Virus record (IMG/VR): IMGVR_UViG_3300032123_000052
Span: 128,001-192,000 of that record
Source of the DNA: a virus
Lineage: Duplodnaviria; Caudoviricetes
DNA length: 64,000 nt
Strand: one strand, 5' to 3'
This document shows positions 1,336 through 59,741 of this stretch, one piece after another. The notes under the pieces were generated by a model. The model did not search any database. It worked only from the letters and a program-made list of their open reading frames with translations, and was not told the DNA's origin. Each line of letters opens with the position of its first letter. Position 1 is the stretch's first letter. A program made the position numbers and the translations under genes.

Positions 1336-3003
1336 ATCCAAATGCCATTCAACCAGCTTGGCTGATCTTCCCTCATGCCCTCTTTTAGAACGTATTTTCG
1401 CAACCATCCCAATCAGATTGTCCCCGGCCCGCATAAACTCTACGCACTCGTTCTCCTTTCCGATCTGGCCAGGTCCGAGCTTGAACTGTTTACCAGAATC
1501 AAGAGATCTGAACCAGATTACCCCTGCAACTTTCCCTTTAGGCCCCCATTTCAAATTGACCGATTCAACCTGCCAATCATAAGCCTCGGCTCTGGTAGTG
1601 TGTTTTCGGCCTTCGTTAATACCCTTCCCCATAGGTACACCAACAAACCCTTCAACCATATTTATGATATGCTTGAATTCAGACGCCGGAACTATTTCAG
1701 GTGGCCTAACAAAATCGCTCAGTTTAGAGAACGCCTCTTGTAATTTACGGTTATCAAAAAACTGTAGATTAGACACATCATTACTGTTCCATTTATCCAT
1801 ACGATAAACAACAAATAGGGGTAATATATCAAGAGGTCTTATCTTATCCGAATTAAGAATACCACCTGTTTCAGCGGCTGTGAGGGTTAATGGTTTGAAT
1901 GGTCTGAATATATTGAACCTTCTGTAGAATACCAATTCACCCATGCCACGAGCACTATCTTCACGCTTTATTCTATAGAGCTCTGGCAGTTTTCCGGTAT
2001 ATTGAATCCTATCACCAGTTTCGATACTTACTCTCGGAGACCAAAAAGTAGTCTCTTTGGAACCTGAACTAAAATGAACACCAGCACCATCATACTTCAA
2101 GGTCACAGTACCAGAATCAACATGGTTCAAAAAAGATTTAAGGTCTTTATCAGATTTAAGATTAAGCCGTTCGCCAAAAGACGGAGACGGCTTCTTTATC
2201 ACACCCCATGTTACTATAGGGGCTTTTTTATTATCTCCGTGGTATAGTTTGTGCAAATAGAGTAACCTATGTTTATTAAGTGTCGGGCAATACATCTTAA
2301 TTGTCTTACCATCACCATTATCAACAGACATTATCTCTACAGGCTTGTTAACTACAGTCTGCCTGGTTAACCCTGAGCCGTAGCCTTTGATTCCAGCTTC
2401 GCCAACATTCCATGATGTTTCAGCGTTCCTTATCGAATGATCAGCATTCTGTGCCATTCTGGAATTGTTCATCACCTCTTCTCGGAGAAAATTCATAATA
2501 GCCATCTTACTTTTTTCGGTAAGCTCGCCACTCTTGTTGAACTTTATATCGTTCATAATTGATTTTCCCCCGATGTTGATGATCAAGCTCAGATGGCCGA
2601 TATGGATATCCAAATGAGGATTGGTCGCATGATGAAACACAACCCTCATCCGTTTTACCACCCGCCTGTTTTGATCAATCTCTCCATCTATCCAGGTTTT
2701 ACTACTCCTGCCATTAATGTTGATAATTGGACGGCGGGTAACCTCCGTCTTTTTACAGACACGCTCTATACCTTTACCAATATTGCCAAACACAACACCC
2801 TTAATAAGACCCTTTGAAAATATTCCAACTACATCATTAATCGATTTTGCTTTATGGTATTTCTTGACAATGGATACGGCTTTAACCACCAACAGTATCC
2901 GCTTTATTTTGCATACTTTAAAAACTTTAGGCCAAGCCGGGCTTATTTCTTGATAAAGGCCCTTTCCCCTAACCAGCCCTTTCGCCAGTAGCCTCATGCT
3001 CAC
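1321..3003 (-). CDS. lig: ATP-dependent DNA ligase with N-terminal LigD-type 3'-phosphoesterase domain
   Basis: Motif I KYDG, GEL and EGFV motifs, C-terminal OB-fold-like segment (YDWQV...KLGPG). N-terminal FHHATNPHLD (H-x5-H-x-D), RMAQNADH and GYGSG match LigD PE-domain motifs. Confidence 0.8.
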   Translation of the reverse strand: MSMRLLAKGLVRGKGLYQEISPAWPKVFKVCKIKRILLVVKAVSIVKKYHKAKSINDVVGIFSKGLIKGVVFGNIGKGIERVCKKTEVTRRPIININGRSSKTWIDGEIDQNRRVVKRMRVVFHHATNPHLDIHIGHLSLIINIGGKSIMNDIKFNKSGELTEKSKMAIMNFLREEVMNNSRMAQNADHSIRNAETSWNVGEAGIKGYGSGLTRQTVVNKPVEIMSVDNGDGKTIKMYCPTLNKHRLLYLHKLYHGDNKKAPIVTWGVIKKPSPSFGERLNLKSDKDLKSFLNHVDSGTVTLKYDGAGVHFSSGSKETTFWSPRVSIETGDRIQYTGKLPELYRIKREDSARGMGELVFYRRFNIFRPFKPLTLTAAETGGILNSDKIRPLDILPLFVVYRMDKWNSNDVSNLQFFDNRKLQEAFSKLSDFVRPPEIVPASEFKHIINMVEGFVGVPMGKGINEGRKHTTRAEAYDWQVESVNLKWGPKGKVAGVIWFRSLDSGKQFKLGPGQIGKENECVEFMRAGDNLIGMVAKIRSKRGHEGRSAKLVEWHLDRGVG

Positions 3004-3415
3004 CCTCCTTTATTTTATTTTCGAGTAGTGTGACTAGCAATAGGATTATCAAGACAGATATTACCGGAATAACCATTGGGGCCTCTATAAATGCGGGTAT
3101 CCATATAAAGTTAGGCAATTCCCCTATGAGGAATATGAGACCTATTGTGGCAAGCGACAATATTACAGCCGCCTCCCAATTATCAATAATATCTTTCCAG
3201 ATATCCTTCGCTTCCTTCATTATAACTTTGGCCAGCTCATCTGCCTGTTTCTTTATGTTATCCCAATTTGCTTTACGGCCATCTTCTGTTTTCATATTCT
3301 TTGAGAAATTATACACAAAAGTTGAGACGTTTATTGTAATATTAATTGTCTGGTTAATTGCCTCTGCGACCAATTCAGTGGCGGTTTCACACTTTTCTTT
3401 GAAATTAAATTTCAT
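2969..3415 (-). CDS. Membrane protein with two hydrophobic segments
   Basis: ORF track; two hydrophobic stretches near the C-terminus; AGGAG RBS. Confidence 0.65.
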   Translation of the reverse strand: MKFNFKEKCETATELVAEAINQTINITINVSTFVYNFSKNMKTEDGRKANWDNIKKQADELAKVIMKEAKDIWKDIIDNWEAAVILSLATIGLIFLIGELPNFIWIPAFIEAPMVIPVISVLIILLLVTLLENKIKEGEHEATGERAG

Positions 3416-3455
3416 TCTATTCTCCTTTTCGTAAATGATTATTATCCTCTTAATA

Positions 3456-3483
3456 GTTATACCAAATTTAGGCTATTAATAAC
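3456..3483 (-). promoter_or_regulatory. Bipartite promoter motif GTTATT-N13-TGGTATAAC
   Basis: One of about 10 copies with identical 13-nt spacing in intergenic regions upstream of minus-strand genes. Confidence 0.7.
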
Positions 3484-3484
3484 T

Positions 3485-3510
3485 AAAAAAAAGGCAGAGA
3501 AAACTCTGCC
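3485..3510 (-). terminator. Intrinsic terminator
   Basis: GGCAGAG-TTTT-CTCTGCC followed by T8 on the minus strand. Confidence 0.8.
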
Positions 3511-3738
3511 TTAAATCGAATTGAACAGACCAAACCATTCGAAAAAACCCATTATCTTCTTATGTTTTGTTATGATCAATTTGTAACCTTTCTTCTGACA
3601 CTTCCAGCATGGGAGGAAGATACCATAGTTAGTTTGATACACAGCATGTTTCTTACCGCAAACCGCACATGGCATATTATGATGAACAACAAGGCCGTCA
3701 CTATCAATCTCGATGACAGCCAAAGGTTTTAAACCCAT
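3511..3738 (-). CDS. Small Zn-finger protein
   Basis: CAVC...CWKC; GGAGG RBS. Confidence 0.65.
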   Translation of the reverse strand: MGLKPLAVIEIDSDGLVVHHNMPCAVCGKKHAVYQTNYGIFLPCWKCQKKGYKLIITKHKKIMGFFEWFGLFNSI

Positions 3739-7000: not shown

Positions 7001-7567
7001 TTATTTTATAAATTTTTCTATCATCGCCATAGTGACTTCAGGCAAATTCATTCCGGTGTAACGAATTACCTGCGGGTGCTTAAGGCGTTTATTGTAGTCA
7101 TGGGCAGGCATTATGACGAGCCCTCTTGGTCTCCATTTCAACCACCCTTCTATATAATCCTGATAGTCATCAACTAGTATATTGCCGTACACCTGGCTTT
7201 TATTACGGGTGATGGTGATGTCAACATCCTCACCGAGATGTGTGTCTACCCACATCTTTTTTCCCATCCATGACTTTGGATTCCTTTTCGGCCCCTGGGT
7301 TAATACCATTCTCTGGAATCCTATATTTCCAGCAACTGTCCAAATGTCCATACCGAGCTTAAATGTTTTAAGACCAGTCCACCAACTTGCTTTAGAGCGT
7401 ATTAAATCCATTCTCGCCCTCAAATATGTTGGGTGGTTTTTTCTTGACAACACGGTAATAACATCTTCATTTGGCGATCTCAGACCCTCTAAACTTTTGA
7501 GTAGCGCCTGATCATAATCACACAACGTTCCATCAAGATCAAATAGTGCAATATTATCTGATTTCAA
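7001..7567 (-). CDS. HAD-superfamily 5'(3')-deoxyribonucleotidase-like phosphatase
   Basis: Motif I FDLDGTLCD, K in RNKS, motif IV ILVDD. Confidence 0.8.
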   Translation of the reverse strand: MKSDNIALFDLDGTLCDYDQALLKSLEGLRSPNEDVITVLSRKNHPTYLRARMDLIRSKASWWTGLKTFKLGMDIWTVAGNIGFQRMVLTQGPKRNPKSWMGKKMWVDTHLGEDVDITITRNKSQVYGNILVDDYQDYIEGWLKWRPRGLVIMPAHDYNKRLKHPQVIRYTGMNLPEVTMAMIEKFIK

Positions 7568-7975
7568 TATTCTTCTCCTTTATATAAAAATAGGGTGGCG
7601 GCCGCCTTGGTAGTATAAAGCCGGAGGATAAATGGCTTAATCGCTACCAGCCACCACCCTTCTGATCAATTCGGCTCACCTTCGAACTCGAGTATCCATA
7701 CTCTCGAGTCACTCATGTTCTCCCTTTCCCGATCAACACGTTGCCACTCTTTGAAAATAGCGGGTTCGCCATCGTCTTCAAGAAGAAATGATGATTCTAA
7801 TCCCTCCTGCAGCATCAAACAGAAAAAAGGAATTTGGCCTTTATGTTTCAATAACCATTCGTAAATAACCAGCGCGTCAACACATATCGCCTCTTTCGTG
7901 GGTTGAGGCGATTTGGCTTTTTTAGCACGTTTTGGGATCGAAAATTTTATTACTTCTTCAATTACGTCCATTAAT

Positions 7976-14682: not shown

Positions 14683-14755
14683 TACTTCCGGTAGGATTCG
14701 AACCTACGACCCCCTGCTTAAATGGCAGGTGCTCTACCAACTAAGCTACGGAAGT
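14683..14755 (-). tRNA. tRNA-Lys(UUU) with A33
   Basis: Full cloverleaf: ACTTCCG/CGGAAGT acceptor, GCTT/GAGC D stem, CCTGC-CATTTAA-GCAGG anticodon arm, GTAGG-TTCGAAT-CCTAC T arm; no CCA encoded. Confidence 0.9.
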
Positions 14756-35117: not shown

Positions 35118-35363
35118 TCATAAGGGACAGCATGCTAAGCGAACTCTGGCAGTTACACGCATCCGGTCGTCGTGACGCGCCCTGACGAGATTAGTCATGG
35201 CTTTTATACTTTTATCTACAACAGCAACACTTGCCATTGTATTGCACATATTTGCCTTGCCAGTTCTGTGGTCTTTTAAGATACTACCAACCTCATCAAC
35301 AGTGTCAAGACATTTTTTCTGCGCCTCAAGACTGATAGCATTTCCGTTTCTTGACACAACCAA
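35118..35363 (-). CDS. Hypothetical protein
   Basis: ORF track; AAGGAGG RBS. Confidence 0.55.
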   Translation of the reverse strand: MVVSRNGNAISLEAQKKCLDTVDEVGSILKDHRTGKANMCNTMASVAVVDKSIKAMTNLVRARHDDRMRVTARVRLACCPL

Positions 35364-35565
35364 CCTCCTTTTTTAATTGTTTAAATGATACTTTTCCAGT
35401 ACGAAATACACGTCGTAATTTTGCATCTTCTCCAAATCTTGGAAAATACCTTCTCCTTGACCCGTGTTCGTTCCTTCTACACCGCTCATTGTGATACTCT
35501 TGCTTCGGTGTTTCAGGAACGAACAATATTCCGCAATGTGGACAGATTTTACTTTGTAAAGGCAT
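35326..35565 (-). CDS. Small Zn-finger-like protein downstream of the CRISPR locus
   Basis: CPHCG..F.P....Q.YH...C pattern; AGGAG RBS. Confidence 0.65.
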   Translation of the reverse strand: MPLQSKICPHCGILFVPETPKQEYHNERCRRNEHGSRRRYFPRFGEDAKLRRVFRTGKVSFKQLKKEVGCVKKRKCYQS

Positions 35566-35583
35566 TTTTATCTCCTATAAATT

Positions 35584-35665
35584 AAAAATGCGCGTGAGGG
35601 TGCTCCGTCGGAGCATTATGTCGCATCGTGGCGACACATACGTTAAATGGTAAACGCTAAACAAC
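35584..35665 (-). ncRNA. tracrRNA-like RNA, copy A (downstream of the array)
   Basis: Three hairpins; CCAUUU in a loop and CCCUCACGCGC are complementary to adjacent parts of the repeat; ends in a U-run. Confidence 0.75.
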
Positions 35666-35699
35666 ATTTGGAACTATTTTTAATTTATTTAGGAAAAAA

Positions 35700-36399
35700 A
35701 ATAAGCCTTTTGCGTGCGCGGAAGAAACAATCGTTCTAAAATAATAAACGGATTATACCACCCATTTCCCTCGCGTGCGCGAAAGAAACGAGATAAAAAA
35801 CAGCCTGGTGATGTTTGCCTCCCCATTTCCCTCGCGCGCGAGAAAGAAACTGATACCGTAGTGCTATAAGGCATAACGCCTCCCCATTTCCCTCGCGCGC
35901 GCGGAAGAAACCCATGGCCAGTGAGAGTTTGACATTTTTCCTTCCCATTTCCCTCGCGCGCGCGGAAGAAACTAGAGAGAGAATTGTTAGATAACTGATA
36001 AGAACCCATTTCCCTCGCGCGCGCGGAAGAAACAGATCGTCAATGGCAATAGGGTTACCTTCACCCCCATTTCCCTCGCGCGCGCGGAAGAAACCGTCAC
36101 CAAATATTTTGCATAGTCTTTCGAAACCCATTTCCCTCGCGCGCGCGGAAGAAACGCCAGCAGGTGCCCACGACCTTGGATCCCCAGCCCATTTCCCTCG
36201 CGCGCGCGGAAGAAACTTTTCAATTTTCTCCTTATTCATTGTCAACCCCCCATTTCCCTCGCGCGCGCGGAAGAAACCGAAAAAATTAGGAGCCTCGCTG
36301 ACCTCCTCACCCATTTCCCTCGCGCGCGCGGAAGAAACAGTGGAAGCGAATTTGCGGGCAATTGGTGCTGCCCATTTCCCTCGCGCGTGCGGAAGAAAC
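35700..36399 (-). CRISPR. CRISPR array: 11 clear repeats plus 1 degenerate repeat (29 bp) and 11 spacers of 32 bp
   Basis: Plus-strand repeats CCCATTTCCCTCGCGCGCGCGGAAGAAAC start at 35761, 35822, 35883, 35944, 36005, 36066, 36127, 36188, 36249, 36310 and 36371, with a decayed copy at 35700; exact 61-bp period. Left-end decay and G-U pairs in the hairpin indicate minus-strand transcription. Confidence 0.97.
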
Positions 36400-36502
36400 T
36401 GCTGGCAATTGGCCCGTCGTCACTAAACAAACAAAATACGATCTGCATTCTTAACTATAGAATTTGTATATAAAGCCTGAAATTGCATAAATTATTATTT
36501 TT

Positions 36503-36584
36503 AAAAAAGGCGCACGAGGGGGAACCGTCGGTTCCTTATGCTGCATCGTGGCAGCACATACGTTAAATGGTAAACGCTAACAAC
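36503..36584 (-). ncRNA. tracrRNA-like RNA, copy B (between effector gene and array leader)
   Basis: 920 bp from copy A; 59/71 identical with 5 compensatory pair swaps; anti-repeat CCCUCGUGCGC pairs with the repeat over 11 bp (one G-U). Confidence 0.8.
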
Positions 36585-36596
36585 TTGTTTAATAAT

Positions 36597-37925
36597 TTAT
36601 ACAACTTCAGTTTCAATCTGGACAGCAACTTTCTTATCGTCCGGTGTGGCAAAGACAGCGTCGCCTGACGTTTCTTTTTCTGGAGCTTTGGCAAGAATGG
36701 TTGTTAATTGTCCTTTTAGCTCATCTTCAACCTTATATCTCAATATGGATTCAAACTGAGATAGCTGCCATTCCATACCGCATAATAATTTTGAAGGTAG
36801 ATTGAGAATAATTATATGGCCACAGCCCCATGACTGCGCGTTGGAAATAATTCTTCTGGTCCAAAGATGGTTCTTCTCCTTTTTGCCGTTAAGCTTTCTA
36901 TTAGTAATATTTTCACTACGACCATTAATTACCTTTAGAATTTTACGGGAACCCCAATTATTAAATTTACTTCCGACAGATGCTCTTTGGTCTTTGAATT
37001 TGCTGGTAAGAATAGCCAACTCCTTGTTCCAAGCACGAGCCTCAGTAACATCTATCTTATCTGAATAATGAAACTTCTCATCACAATACATCGTAATGGC
37101 ACACTCAGGATCATCAGTAAATTCAACATACATAACCCTGTTTTTAAAGTCTTCAACAACCTTTTCCGGCATTTTGTAAGTTACTGTAAGGGTTAAATAT
37201 CTGTGCTTCTGGCCATCAGACCCATTCTTATAATTAGACCCAAGATACATTGTACCAGGTCTCCACACGTCGTCACGGAGATTTTTAAACTTCCAGAACA
37301 TGTTGTTTGGAAGACTACTCTTAACATGAAACTCTACAGGGCCAATTGAATGGTCCCATTTAACAATAATACTTTTTTCCATAAATTTCGGCTTTGCCGT
37401 CAATCGCGGCATGCCAATGCCTATTTTTCGAAACCTGGCAAAAGCACGAGATCCTTGAAGGGTAAGCCAACCGCGCGTGATTGTTTTTTTTTTAGTTGAA
37501 AATTCCGGATCTGGGTGTTTCCATGTTCCAACCACCTCATCCTTACATGAGGTCCACACGTATGACAGGACTGTAGGCATTTCCTCTTTATTTGCAAAAT
37601 CCCGAAGTTCATAAGCGTCGGCCTTATATCCAACTACACCATATGCGAGTTCAAGGATTTTTTTTGCAGATCCTTTAAATCCTTTTTTTGGTGTTAAAGT
37701 TAAATTGCCTTTTTTTGTTGTTATGGTCGCGCCTGTTGCCATTGCCATTGCTATAGCAGAAAACATTTTTCGTGCTGTAGCACGGTATAAATCTATTGAT
37801 GCAAAAATTCTACGTACCAACCCTGTTTTATCAGGATCATCAACAAAAACTTCAAACACTTGTGCCCTTGTGACTTTGTAATAGTCATCTTCATATCTTT
37901 TCTTTTGGCCTTCTTTCTTATTCAT
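36597..37925 (-). CDS. Compact TnpB/Cas12f-like type V effector, RuvC apparently inactivated and truncated
   Basis: Adjacent to the array. C-terminal NHLWTRRIISNAQSWGCGHIIILNLP and WQLSQFESILRYKV match the TnpB RuvC-II region. RuvC-I reads VMYVEF (not GIDxG), the RuvC-II Glu is replaced by Leu, and there is no Zn finger or RuvC-III. Confidence 0.75.
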   Translation of the reverse strand: MNKKEGQKKRYEDDYYKVTRAQVFEVFVDDPDKTGLVRRIFASIDLYRATARKMFSAIAMAMATGATITTKKGNLTLTPKKGFKGSAKKILELAYGVVGYKADAYELRDFANKEEMPTVLSYVWTSCKDEVVGTWKHPDPEFSTKKKTITRGWLTLQGSRAFARFRKIGIGMPRLTAKPKFMEKSIIVKWDHSIGPVEFHVKSSLPNNMFWKFKNLRDDVWRPGTMYLGSNYKNGSDGQKHRYLTLTVTYKMPEKVVEDFKNRVMYVEFTDDPECAITMYCDEKFHYSDKIDVTEARAWNKELAILTSKFKDQRASVGSKFNNWGSRKILKVINGRSENITNRKLNGKKEKNHLWTRRIISNAQSWGCGHIIILNLPSKLLCGMEWQLSQFESILRYKVEDELKGQLTTILAKAPEKETSGDAVFATPDDKKVAVQIETEVV

Positions 37926-51027: not shown

Positions 51028-52530
51028 TTAGCCATCACTTACGACAGCGGGGAGATCGCCAACCGAATGGAATTCCCACCATACTGATGGGTTCATACCG
51101 CTGTTCTTATTTTTCTTTGTGACAATGGGCTTTTCCATGTATAAGATTTGATTTGGGCATTTGGCACTTCGAAAGCCCTTCCCGTCTTCTGAGTTCCTGA
51201 GTTTATAGACACTTATCTGGACATCATCGTTACATAAGCCAAATTCATAGTTTTTTTTGGGCAAGGAAACCCCATCCACTTGTGGGTGGGGAGGAATTGC
51301 CCCCTCCTTGTATAATTTAGATGCTATTAACATTGTATTGCTTGATTCTAATAATTTGAGCTTTCTCCAAACTGCACTTGCATGTATCTTGTTGCCGTCT
51401 AATTCCCGAATATCAAAATATCCGGTTTTGCGTCTGCCAAAAATAAAACACTCAATATTGTTGTATAAAACCTTATCAAACCTCTGAAATCCGTGTATAA
51501 ATCTTTCAGCAGTATTTCTTATATGGCTTCTAATCCCTTTAAATAGTTTTCTATTATTTTTCCGCACTTGTTTTTGTAAATATTGAGTTTCTTCTCTCTC
51601 TTGACCTTCTCCACCTGCTATAACAAATGCATCGTTAATATGACTTTTGGGTATATTGTTTTTAATCCGGTTATTCTTTGTAATATATCCATATGTATGA
51701 TTGACCTGATTCCTAAGTTCTCTTAGTTTGTCTACAATCTTCCACCTGACCATAGACATAAATGTTTCAGCTTTAAATCCATTAGGCTGTTTTGCTTTAA
51801 GTTTGATTTCACCCTTATGATGTTGCTGGTGGCAAGTTTTACACAGAGTAATTAGGTTAGCAGATCTATCACCACCTATCTGTCTTGACTTAATATGATG
51901 TACGTTTAGAATTGGGTCTTTAGATTTACCATTACATGACTGACAAGTATGGTTATCTCTATACAAAACATATTCTCTTGTATTCCAGAAGCCTAACTTT
52001 TCTCCTTGTTGATATTCTGCTCCGGCTATCTCAGGATTCTTAATTCTTTGAATATCAAAAGCAGCTACTTCTACATTAATTTTTGTGATAGGTAATATTT
52101 CCTTAACTCTATCGATTATCTTAATGTGTGAATCAAACTTGTGTTGTATAGAAGGTGCTAACCAACCCTTCTTTTTACTTTTCACTCTGTTTAAAAAACG
52201 GGGTTGCCTGTACCAGGTTTTTCTACTCCTTCTTGTCCTCCTGCACATTCTTCTTTCTGATATGAGTTTCACAATATCAGTTCTAAGCTTTACTTCGGAT
52301 GCAAACAATTCTTTCTTGTCAGTAACAGCAGATAATCCTACATTAGCATATCCACTATCTACACCAAGTATAATAGGCTGTTTATAACCACTTGAACCAT
52401 GGAGCAATTGAATTGTAAACGGTGTTTTCTTCACCACTTTAGCTTTTCCTTCTTTAAGCAATGTTCTTACTTTTCTTGGTCTGCATGGCATCAATGGTTT
52501 ACCATGCTTGTTAATAACAAAAACTAACAA
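51028..52530 (-). CDS. iscB: IscB RNA-guided endonuclease with a C-terminal extension from the interrupted gene
   Basis: PLMP N-terminus, RuvC-I GVDSG, RRxRR bridge helix, HNH (HHI...NLITLCKTCH), RuvC-III SHINDA. Confidence 0.93.
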   Translation of the reverse strand: MLVFVINKHGKPLMPCRPRKVRTLLKEGKAKVVKKTPFTIQLLHGSSGYKQPIILGVDSGYANVGLSAVTDKKELFASEVKLRTDIVKLISERRMCRRTRRSRKTWYRQPRFLNRVKSKKKGWLAPSIQHKFDSHIKIIDRVKEILPITKINVEVAAFDIQRIKNPEIAGAEYQQGEKLGFWNTREYVLYRDNHTCQSCNGKSKDPILNVHHIKSRQIGGDRSANLITLCKTCHQQHHKGEIKLKAKQPNGFKAETFMSMVRWKIVDKLRELRNQVNHTYGYITKNNRIKNNIPKSHINDAFVIAGGEGQEREETQYLQKQVRKNNRKLFKGIRSHIRNTAERFIHGFQRFDKVLYNNIECFIFGRRKTGYFDIRELDGNKIHASAVWRKLKLLESSNTMLIASKLYKEGAIPPHPQVDGVSLPKKNYEFGLCNDDVQISVYKLRNSEDGKGFRSAKCPNQILYMEKPIVTKKNKNSGMNPSVWWEFHSVGDLPAVVSDG

Positions 52531-52758
52531 TTAGTTTTTCTCCTTAACAAAGAGTTAGAGCCACATCGGGATTGTTGTAAAGACTTGTCATGTTGGCCAC
52601 ACCGTTCCTTACCCTCAGAACTTTTAATAACCAACGATAGAGCATGGAGCTTGTGGAGTACTTCAAGGTATCTTGATCTAAACAACTTCTGCATAATAAT
52701 TACGCTCCCTTGTCAACTAAGGCTTCAAGCCTCGCCCCTTGTGGGCGGGGTCGTTGAC
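51249..52758 (-). mobile_element. IS200/IS605-superfamily IscB element (non-autonomous; no tnpA seen)
   Basis: Left end GTCAACGACCCCGCCCACAAGGGGCG, right-end hairpin CCCCACCCACAAGTGGATGGGGTTTCC, followed by ATGA; the empty site rebuilds an open reading frame. Confidence 0.85.
52535..52758 (-). ncRNA. omega-RNA / HEARO scaffold
   Basis: GTCAAC...GTTGAC terminal helix and typical HEARO layout directly upstream of iscB. Confidence 0.85.
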
Positions 52759-59302: not shown

Positions 59303-59345
59303 TTATAATATTTTGTACAAAATATCTGGTTTTATAACAGTATTA

Positions 59346-59741
59346 TGGAGGTGGGGACATCCGAGAGTCCCGTCCGTCAACGCCTTCAACCGAACTTCTA
59401 CATGCTTAGTTTGTGATTTAATCTTACTGCCATCAGCTTCCACAAACAGAATCAAACGACAGCCAGCTTCTAATTTCACTTATGAGTCGAAGCGCCATCA
59501 TAAGCTATGATCCTACGACTACCCGGAGATTACGGACCCATTCCTCCCAAGGTTTGTCATCTTTAATTAGATGACGGCGATGTCCTGCTTGGTGTTTGCA
59601 TAACACATAGCGCCAAACATGACATTGAAATCTATATTGGTTTTGCCAATTAGACGTTTATCGGACGATTAGCGAGGCCAACCGATAATCCTCGGCATGC
59701 AACTCAAATCTTCAAACGTTACGTCGATACCGTTCACCCCC
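59346..59741 (-). ncRNA. ssrA: tmRNA
   Basis: GGGGGTG/CACCTCC acceptor stem with G3-U70; GAACGGTATCGAC 5' motif; GCATGCCGAGG; pk1 (CGAGG/CCTCG plus ATCGG/CCGAT); tag ORF whose stop lies in the H5 loop (GTCATCT/AGATGAC). Confidence 0.92.

Follow-up and report, generated by a model that had tools for sequence, protein, structure and literature searches.

Two copies of a probable minimal tracrRNA in a phage-borne, predicted nuclease-dead Cas12f-type CRISPR locus

Two RNA copies flanking a phage CRISPR array

The stretch of DNA analyzed here (the window) comprises 64,000 nucleotides (nt) of the virus record IMGVR_UViG_3300032123_000052. The complete record is 208,085 base pairs (bp) long, is rated complete, and originates from a marine-sediment metagenome. 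Within the window lie two direct copies of a small structured RNA element, called copies A and B, next to a CRISPR array. The properties of these copies suggest that they encode trans-activating CRISPR RNAs (tracrRNAs) that serve a neighboring protein with the fold of Cas12f. On the minus strand, which is the effector strand, the locus consists of a gene for a 442-amino-acid (aa) effector, copy B, the CRISPR array, copy A, and a gene for a 79-aa zinc-ribbon protein. Coordinates are window positions unless a locus prefix is given, and L-numbers denote homologous loci. The features, all on the minus strand, are as follows.

36597-37925, minus strand: effector gene P0001, 442 aa, assigned a Cas12f fold by family profile and by AlphaFold2 (AF2) and Foldseek
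36504-36580, minus strand: candidate tracrRNA copy B (core 36509-36578), from covariance model (81.7 bits), fold, and co-fold
36477-36610, minus strand: helix around copy B, with arms at 36590-36610 and 36477-36497 (21 nt, 90% complementary)
36400-36476, minus strand: leader, extending from copy B to the first repeat, from a reading of the sequence
35712-36399, minus strand: CRISPR array made up of 11 complete 29-nt repeats, a truncated 12th, and 11 spacers of 32 nt each
35584-35660, minus strand: candidate tracrRNA copy A (core 35589-35658), from covariance model (80.7 bits), fold, and co-fold
35565-35700, minus strand: helix around copy A, with arms at 35676-35700 and 35565-35589 (25 nt, 80% complementary)
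35326-35565, minus strand: zinc-ribbon gene P0153, 79 aa (CPHC...C), from homology to the tail of the homologue P0014

The two copies are 77 nt each and share 83% identity according to a repeat finder. By direct count they differ at 13 of 77 positions, and at 12 of 71 within the boundaries used in the original prediction, which had reported the same number. Ten of the 13 differences make up five two-sided pair swaps, as had also been claimed: 27/40 and 28/39 in hairpin 2, and 46/60, 48/58, and 49/57 in hairpin 3 (minus-strand numbering). No difference within a helix lacks compensation, and the other three differences are located within the tail or just past it.

The predicted minus-strand fold is shared by both copies and consists of three hairpins and then a C-rich tail that stays unpaired (-22.5 and -22.8 kcal/mol), an architecture in which the stem-loop displaying CCAUUU, the two further hairpins, and the 3' segment of the original prediction are all recognizable. 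Copy B thus consists of hairpin 1 with the loop UACCAUUU, hairpins 2 and 3, and the 3' tail CCCUCGUGCGCC. The hairpin-1 loop exposes CCAUUU in both copies, and the tail reads CCCUCGUGCGC in copy B and CCCUCACGCGC in copy A; in the feature listing, the tail of copy A is given as CCCUCACGCGCA. A search of the region with Rfam returned nothing at gathering score and one chance microRNA match (E = 0.14).

Each copy is enclosed by a long helix. The helix around copy B has a duplex energy of -24.6 kcal/mol (z = -6.3 versus shuffles), and its 5' arm (36590-36610) overlaps the stop codon of the effector gene. The helix around copy A is weaker (-13.5 kcal/mol, z = -3.0 versus shuffles), and its 3' arm holds the ribosome-binding site of the zinc-ribbon gene. 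Both helices are AU-rich, and they are unlike each other in sequence. Enclosing helices of this kind are present in about half of the loci described below, among them L003, L124, L136, L138, L141, L143, and L144. These helices suggest that the RNA is excised from a long transcript. The U-run that follows the tail, also noted in the original prediction, is part of the 21-25-bp enclosing helix and is not an obvious terminator; a terminator scan found none there.

The repeat of the array is GUUUCUUCCGCGCGCGCGAGGGAAAUGGG, with full copies at 36399-35761 and the truncated 12th copy at 35728-35712. Because the degenerate repeats are at the low-coordinate end, we place the leader at the high-coordinate end and assume transcription along the minus strand. 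The truncated repeat (35712-35728, minus strand) is missing exactly the segments that would pair with the tracrRNA; beyond it come AAAAGGC and eight consecutive Ts. Across the 208-kb genome, there is one array and there are exactly two copies of the RNA.

Conservation of the RNA and its pairing with the repeat

A covariance model (R1) was built from 11 sequences and used to search the window and 25 homologous loci; the original prediction had called for such a model, to be searched against phage metagenomes. The search identified 34 copies of the RNA, located in the window and in 22 of the 25 other loci, beside homologous effectors. All 34 are on the effector strand, and most reside directly after the effector gene or ahead of an array. 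In the resulting alignment (A7), 91.9% of cells pair, a share that falls to 61.7% upon shuffling and to 31-45% upon sliding of the partners. Double changes occupy 166 cells (50.6 expected), two-sided changes occur at 14 of the 17 pairs, and the many G-U pairs fix the transcribed strand. In the loci of the close homologues L001 and L003, this RNA follows immediately behind the gene and shows additional compensatory changes.

The presence of more than one copy is the rule rather than the exception in these loci, and each copy usually heads an array of its own. Two copies are found in L129, L143, L144, L004, and L126, and three in L133 and L134, while in L137 and L139 the effector is flanked, with one copy upstream and the other downstream of it. 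The sole copy in L136 is placed like copy A in the window, downstream of the array.

In every locus, the hairpin-1 loop complements the last six bases of the repeat before its terminal G or Gs. The following pairs of loop and repeat end are observed.

CCAUUU with AAAUGG: the window, L001, L003, and the first module of L143
CCAUUA with UAAUGG: the second module of L143, L129, L139-2, the second module of L004, and L125
CCAUCA with UGAUGG: L138, L141, L137, L133, L132, L126, and the first module of L004
CCAUUC with GAAUGG: L144-2
CCCGAA with UUCGGG: L124
GUAUCA with UGAUAU: L136

All 20 cognate combinations form 6-7 bp between loop and repeat, at least six of them contiguous, and they fall into six compensatory classes. 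Loci L143 and L004 each contain two modules whose loops match different repeat ends, and thereby provide a control within a single locus.

The tail is complementary to a second segment of the repeat, immediately upstream of the first. This pairing extends over 11 bp in both copy B and L124, over 10 bp in L136, and over 9 bp in L138 and in L144; in copy A it is split into 5+5 bp. The L003 tail is a perfect complement of its repeat over 11 bp, from which copy B departs by one C-to-U change (giving a G-U pair) and copy A by one G-to-A change (giving an A-C mismatch). In a permutation test (50,000 permutations, one representative per lineage, sums of duplex energies), no permutation was as good as the cognate combinations for the loop, and one was as good for the tail.

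When each copy was co-folded with the repeat-spacer RNA, as had been recommended, the 11-bp duplex between tail and repeat was obtained for both, with ddG values of -18.2 kcal/mol for copy B and -14.7 kcal/mol for copy A. The three hairpins are kept in these co-folds, and the loop and AAAUGG stay free for antiparallel pairing. This outcome agrees with the interaction first proposed for the window, namely pairing of AAAUGG with the loop and an 11-bp pairing of the tail that includes one G-U pair in copy B and one mismatch in copy A. The original prediction had been staked on conservation of the anti-repeat pairing in homologous loci, and there the pairing is both conserved and covarying.

In three loci (L002, L125, and L126), the repeats are cut down to 6-12 nt that correspond exactly to the RNA-pairing segments. 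At L125:3690-4530 (plus strand), 30 TAATGG units lie on one strand within 840 nt, versus about 2 per kb elsewhere. Their spacing is 11-52 nt, mostly 20-30 nt, and they directly follow a tracrRNA whose loop is UCCAUUA. Two of the "spacers" in L125 are each present twice. In L002, mini-repeats of the form GCGGGTGATGG with a spacing of 23-39 nt occupy 2950-3330 and 3500-3700 (plus strand), on both sides of the tracrRNA at 3432-3495. A sigma-70-family gene is present in L002 at 7154-7702 (minus strand), about 4 kb from the mini-repeats and tracrRNA. In the window, a short-repeat array of this kind was sought downstream of copy A, and AAATGG occurs zero times in the 1200 nt searched.

The associated proteins and comparison with known systems

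When P0001 was searched as a single sequence against Pfam, NCBIfam, and PDB, there were zero matches, and as a lone query it found no viral relative. Its identification as a Cas12f-type protein comes only from the family profile and the fold. An exhaustive search yielded at least 150 clusters of homologues. A profile of 71 homologues matches the PDB chains of OsCas12f (7e-27), AsCas12f (~1e-20), and a natural dead Cas12f (9n9c, 6.6e-16). The AF2 model of P0001 has a predicted local distance difference test (pLDDT) score of 89, and its best Foldseek matches are AsCas12f, OsCas12f, and dead Cas12f (dCas12f), with E-values of 1e-13 to 1e-11. By profile and model, the Cas12f/TnpB fold with its WED, REC, and RuvC core is present.

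The catalytic Asp and Glu of this core are absent: the RuvC-I position of P0001 is Glu268 and the RuvC-II position is Leu374, and both columns are variable across the 71 homologues. P0001 ends about 44 aa past a conserved YK motif, lacks RuvC-III, and has no CxxC pair in its tail. The other proteins of the family likewise stop shortly after the YK motif and are devoid of the zinc finger/TNB end and of RuvC-III. Judged from these sequences, the effector family is nuclease-dead throughout. The gene neighborhoods of the homologues are phage-like.

The zinc-ribbon protein P0153 is related to the C-terminal tail of the effector homologue P0014 (44% identity over 62 aa, E = 1e-16). The zinc ribbon is fused to the effector in P0014 and is encoded by a separate gene in the window. 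Homologues of P0153 are also found in 11 of the homologous loci (L127-L131, L133-L136, L139, and L142). P0153 is probably a further subunit of the system, and it may substitute for the missing zinc-finger end of the effector.

Among characterized systems, Cas12f1 (AsCas12f, OsCas12f, SpCas12f1, and Un1Cas12f1) resembles the window locus in its effector fold, a guide located 3' of the repeat, a tracrRNA encoded between effector and array, and binding of the repeat at two places. In Cas12f1, one of these places is a long stem and the other a short stem of 5-7 bp, which makes a pseudoknot beside the guide (PMC11246509). The window effector differs by lacking the RuvC triad and the zinc-finger/TNB end. 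Cas12f1 is described as a homodimer on a single RNA of ~200 nt (PMC12255294), whereas the tracrRNA core of the window family is only ~70 nt. Further differences are the two or three RNA copies in each locus, the zinc-ribbon protein encoded apart from the effector, the location on a phage, and the lack of adaptation genes.

An association of dead Cas12f with arrays, and a path by which it could have evolved, are already published on the basis of sequence analysis only. Hoffmann et al. (Nature 2026; PMC13472631, Extended Data Fig. 1a,b) distinguished a cluster of dead, C-terminally truncated, array-linked Cas12f proteins with a covarying structured RNA upstream of the array. That cluster was drawn from bacterial genomes and metagenome-assembled genomes only, and a repressor role was put forward there as an untested suggestion. 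By this description, the cluster resembles the window locus in having a dead, truncated Cas12f beside an array and a covarying RNA upstream of the array. The account (PMC13472631) does not include the two-part pairing, the multiple copies, the zinc-ribbon partner, or the phage setting.

Altae-Tran et al. (PNAS 2023; PMC10691335) proposed that Cas12f loses catalysis and RuvC-III, that the array then shrinks to half repeats, and that these are later fused to the tracrRNA. The window, with array and tracrRNA retained, fits the first stage of this scenario, and L002, L125, and L126 fit the stage of shrinkage. Their paper presents the scenario without RNA-level analysis and does not describe long arrays of 6-12-nt repeats (PMC10691335).

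The dCas12f-sigma-E systems use one fused guide. No tracrRNA was found for them, the array has been lost, and they act with a sigma factor in gene activation (PMC13472631; 10.1101/2025.06.10.658880). They share with the window a dead, truncated Cas12f (profile versus 9n9c, 6.6e-16), a scaffold with four paired regions that is about as large, and a short guide on the 3' side. In contrast, the window has a dual RNA and a true array, with no sigma factor in the locus. The effector profile is closer to active OsCas12f than to dCas12f. The omega-RNA of TnpB is also similar in beginning at the effector gene's 3' end, in having a pseudoknot adjacent to the guide, and in carrying the guide at its 3' side. 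However, omega-RNA forms one molecule and is linked to the end of a transposon, whereas the window RNA is split between tracrRNA and array guides, with no transposon. Another phage-encoded protein, Cas12r of Thermus phages, was considered and set aside, since it is an active nuclease of 564 aa that is independent of tracrRNA (10.64898/2026.04.20.719267).

Thus, several features of the family are undescribed in the published accounts that we compared: the covarying two-part pairing, the multiple tracrRNA modules, the zinc-ribbon partner, the long arrays of 6-12-nt repeats, and the phage setting.

Proposed function, alternatives, and significance

A tracrRNA function with a two-part anti-repeat, as originally predicted for the window, is favored by four lines of evidence: the neighboring protein has a Cas12f fold, the RNA occurs with covariation in 22 loci beside homologous effectors, its loop and tail track the repeats of their own loci, and the layout resembles that of Cas12f1 (PMC11246509). 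We estimate a probability of roughly 0.8 that the two copies are functional tracrRNAs.

Under this interpretation, copies A and B would be genes for a minimal tracrRNA of ~70 nt that belongs to a phage-borne, nuclease-dead Cas12f-type CRISPR system. The RNA would be transcribed together with the effector and the array and released by cleavage of the enclosing helix, for which RNase III is an obvious candidate. The C-rich tail would then form a long repeat:anti-repeat stem with the 11-nt repeat stretch GCGCGCGAGGG. The CCAUUU loop would form a short, pseudoknot-type stem with the next six repeat bases, AAAUGG, which are located one or two bases before the spacer. Bound by the effector, the resulting RNA duplex would expose the spacer as a guide on its 3' side. 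With no RuvC triad in the effector, the complex would most likely bind matching DNA without cutting it, with repression or blocking as the consequence; the dead active site and the published relatives point in this direction. Both copies are probably usable, and copy B pairs slightly better with the repeat. The copies may differ in activity, as the original prediction had suggested, for which the sole basis is the one G-U pair versus the one A-C mismatch in the long stem.

Several observations weigh against this interpretation. The repeat alone folds into a hairpin (-8.9 kcal/mol), as in systems that are independent of tracrRNA. The CCAU:AUGG core of the short stem is nearly invariant, so that the covariation of the loop is confined mainly to two positions plus the variants in L124 and L136. 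The alignment was itself fitted to the covariance model, and the permutation tests correct only partly for shared ancestry. The pseudoknot stem is beyond the reach of folding tools and is deduced from covariation alone. In public sequencing runs, the sequence appears only as DNA and in one marine-sediment sample. Copy A, which has no array of its own downstream, could be a relic. Finally, DNA binding and its outcome are conjecture, given that no spacer target was found.

The targets were sought in three ways. Comparison of the spacers with the 208-kb genome itself gave only chance 13-mers, a search of GenBank phages produced no targets, and a search of IMG/VR with two of the spacers likewise produced none. 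Three of the 11 spacers (35729-36370) contain a Shine-Dalgarno motif and a start codon in the guide sense, versus 4.8% of random 32-mers from the genome (P = 0.014), and one starts with TGGTATAAT. These features lend weak support to the notion that spacers are aimed at the starts of genes. The phage genome contains no Cas1 gene. In GenBank phages, neither a protein nor a DNA relative was found. Scans of viral contigs for the pattern GCGCGGGTGATGGG and of genome contigs for the pattern GCGCGAGGGAAATGGG gave single chance matches only, and consequently yielded neither a host nor a donor array.

Other functions for the copies were also considered. One molecule that spans copy B, the leader, and the first repeat-spacer unit might act in cis as a single guide, similar to an omega-RNA, with the remaining repeat-spacer units serving as evolutionary stock; a natural single-guide transcript with copy B had also been suggested in the original prediction. 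The arrangement in L138, L141, L143, and L144 is suggestive in this respect: only ~13-25 nt lie between the tail and the first repeat, with which the 3' arm of the enclosing helix overlaps. Moreover, sigma-E dCas12f proteins work with single guides whose scaffold is about as large, contains four paired regions, and is joined to a 14-nt guide (10.1101/2025.06.10.658880), and fusion of tracrRNA and half repeat has been proposed for this lineage (PMC10691335). In the window, however, ~100 nt separate copy B from the first repeat, and copy B is shut off by a 21-bp helix of its own. Copy A and the only copy in L136 lie downstream of their arrays, where they cannot act as cis guides. The 11 well-kept repeats with identical pairing segments also argue that all units are served, and we consider a dedicated single guide unlikely.

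We judge it still less likely that the copies are structured elements that are not bound by the effector and that shape transcript ends or the translation of neighboring genes, for example as RNase III sites, a leader, or a terminator. The long AU-rich helix around each copy, the ribosome-binding site of the zinc-ribbon gene in the 3' arm of the copy A helix, and the U-run after the tail would all suit such a role. Yet the helix is missing in about half of the loci, whereas the three-hairpin core is always present. This role would also leave unexplained why loop and tail follow their own repeat by compensatory changes, and why the RNA matches the two-stem design of Cas12f1 (PMC11246509).

Arrays with 29-nt repeats and 32-nt spacers, and the GGGGAUAA-type repeat ends found in relatives, are reminiscent of type I-E systems. 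This geometry, together with the lack of Cas1 in the phage, could mean that a host type I-E system is decoyed or hijacked by the array and RNAs, in the role of an RNA anti-CRISPR or of a mini-array for host Cascade and without any connection to the neighboring protein. We regard this as very improbable. The RNA, the array, and the effector family co-occur in over 20 loci, and instead of mimicking the repeat, the RNA complements it. The repeats of relatives that have shrunk to the RNA-pairing segments would be intolerable in an array directed at Cascade.

If the copies are tracrRNAs, then the loci with shortened repeats can be read together with the window, in a more tentative proposal that we regard as possible although less probable than not. 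Only the repeat bases that pair with the tracrRNA, and ultimately only the six that pair with the loop, would need to be kept. Guide arrays could then operate with repeats of 6-12 nt, as in the 30 TAATGG units of L125 and the GCGGGTGATGG units of L002. Several modules with private codes might coexist in one locus, as in L143 and L004, and the differences between copies A and B could represent a first step toward such private codes.

The phage encodes other structured RNAs and candidates for further RNA-guided proteins. A transfer-messenger RNA (118.7 bits) is located at 59343-59741 and a tRNA at 14683-14755, both on the minus strand. A HEARO RNA (Rfam RF02033, 113.7 bits) is found at 52554-52758 (minus strand), immediately upstream of a 500-aa open reading frame (ORF) at 51028-52530. 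We read this pair as a putative IscB-type gene with its omega-RNA. If so, the same phage would carry a second, unrelated RNA-guided system. Just beyond the window, a 378-aa ORF (G000:C1:125252-125608, plus strand) has a weak match to the effector profile in its RuvC-proximal part (E = 4.6e-9) and may be a TnpB-like gene.

The analysis provides a sequence-level, testable model of guide assembly for array-linked dead Cas12f proteins, which so far have received only passing mention in the literature. A tracrRNA of ~70 nt with a 442-aa protein would be among the smallest dual-RNA DNA-binding systems, and thus attractive for compact tools of the CRISPR interference type. If the proposal on short repeats is correct, arrays with repeats of 6-12 nt are unlikely to be detected by standard CRISPR finders. 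The series of repeats from 29 nt to 12 nt to 6 nt reveals directly which repeat bases matter. It also documents the tracrRNA/half-repeat stage in the path from Cas12f to single-guide regulators, as put forward by Altae-Tran et al. More broadly, large phages are predicted to carry RNA-guided DNA binders supplied with many guides, which probably silence genes of the host or of rivals.

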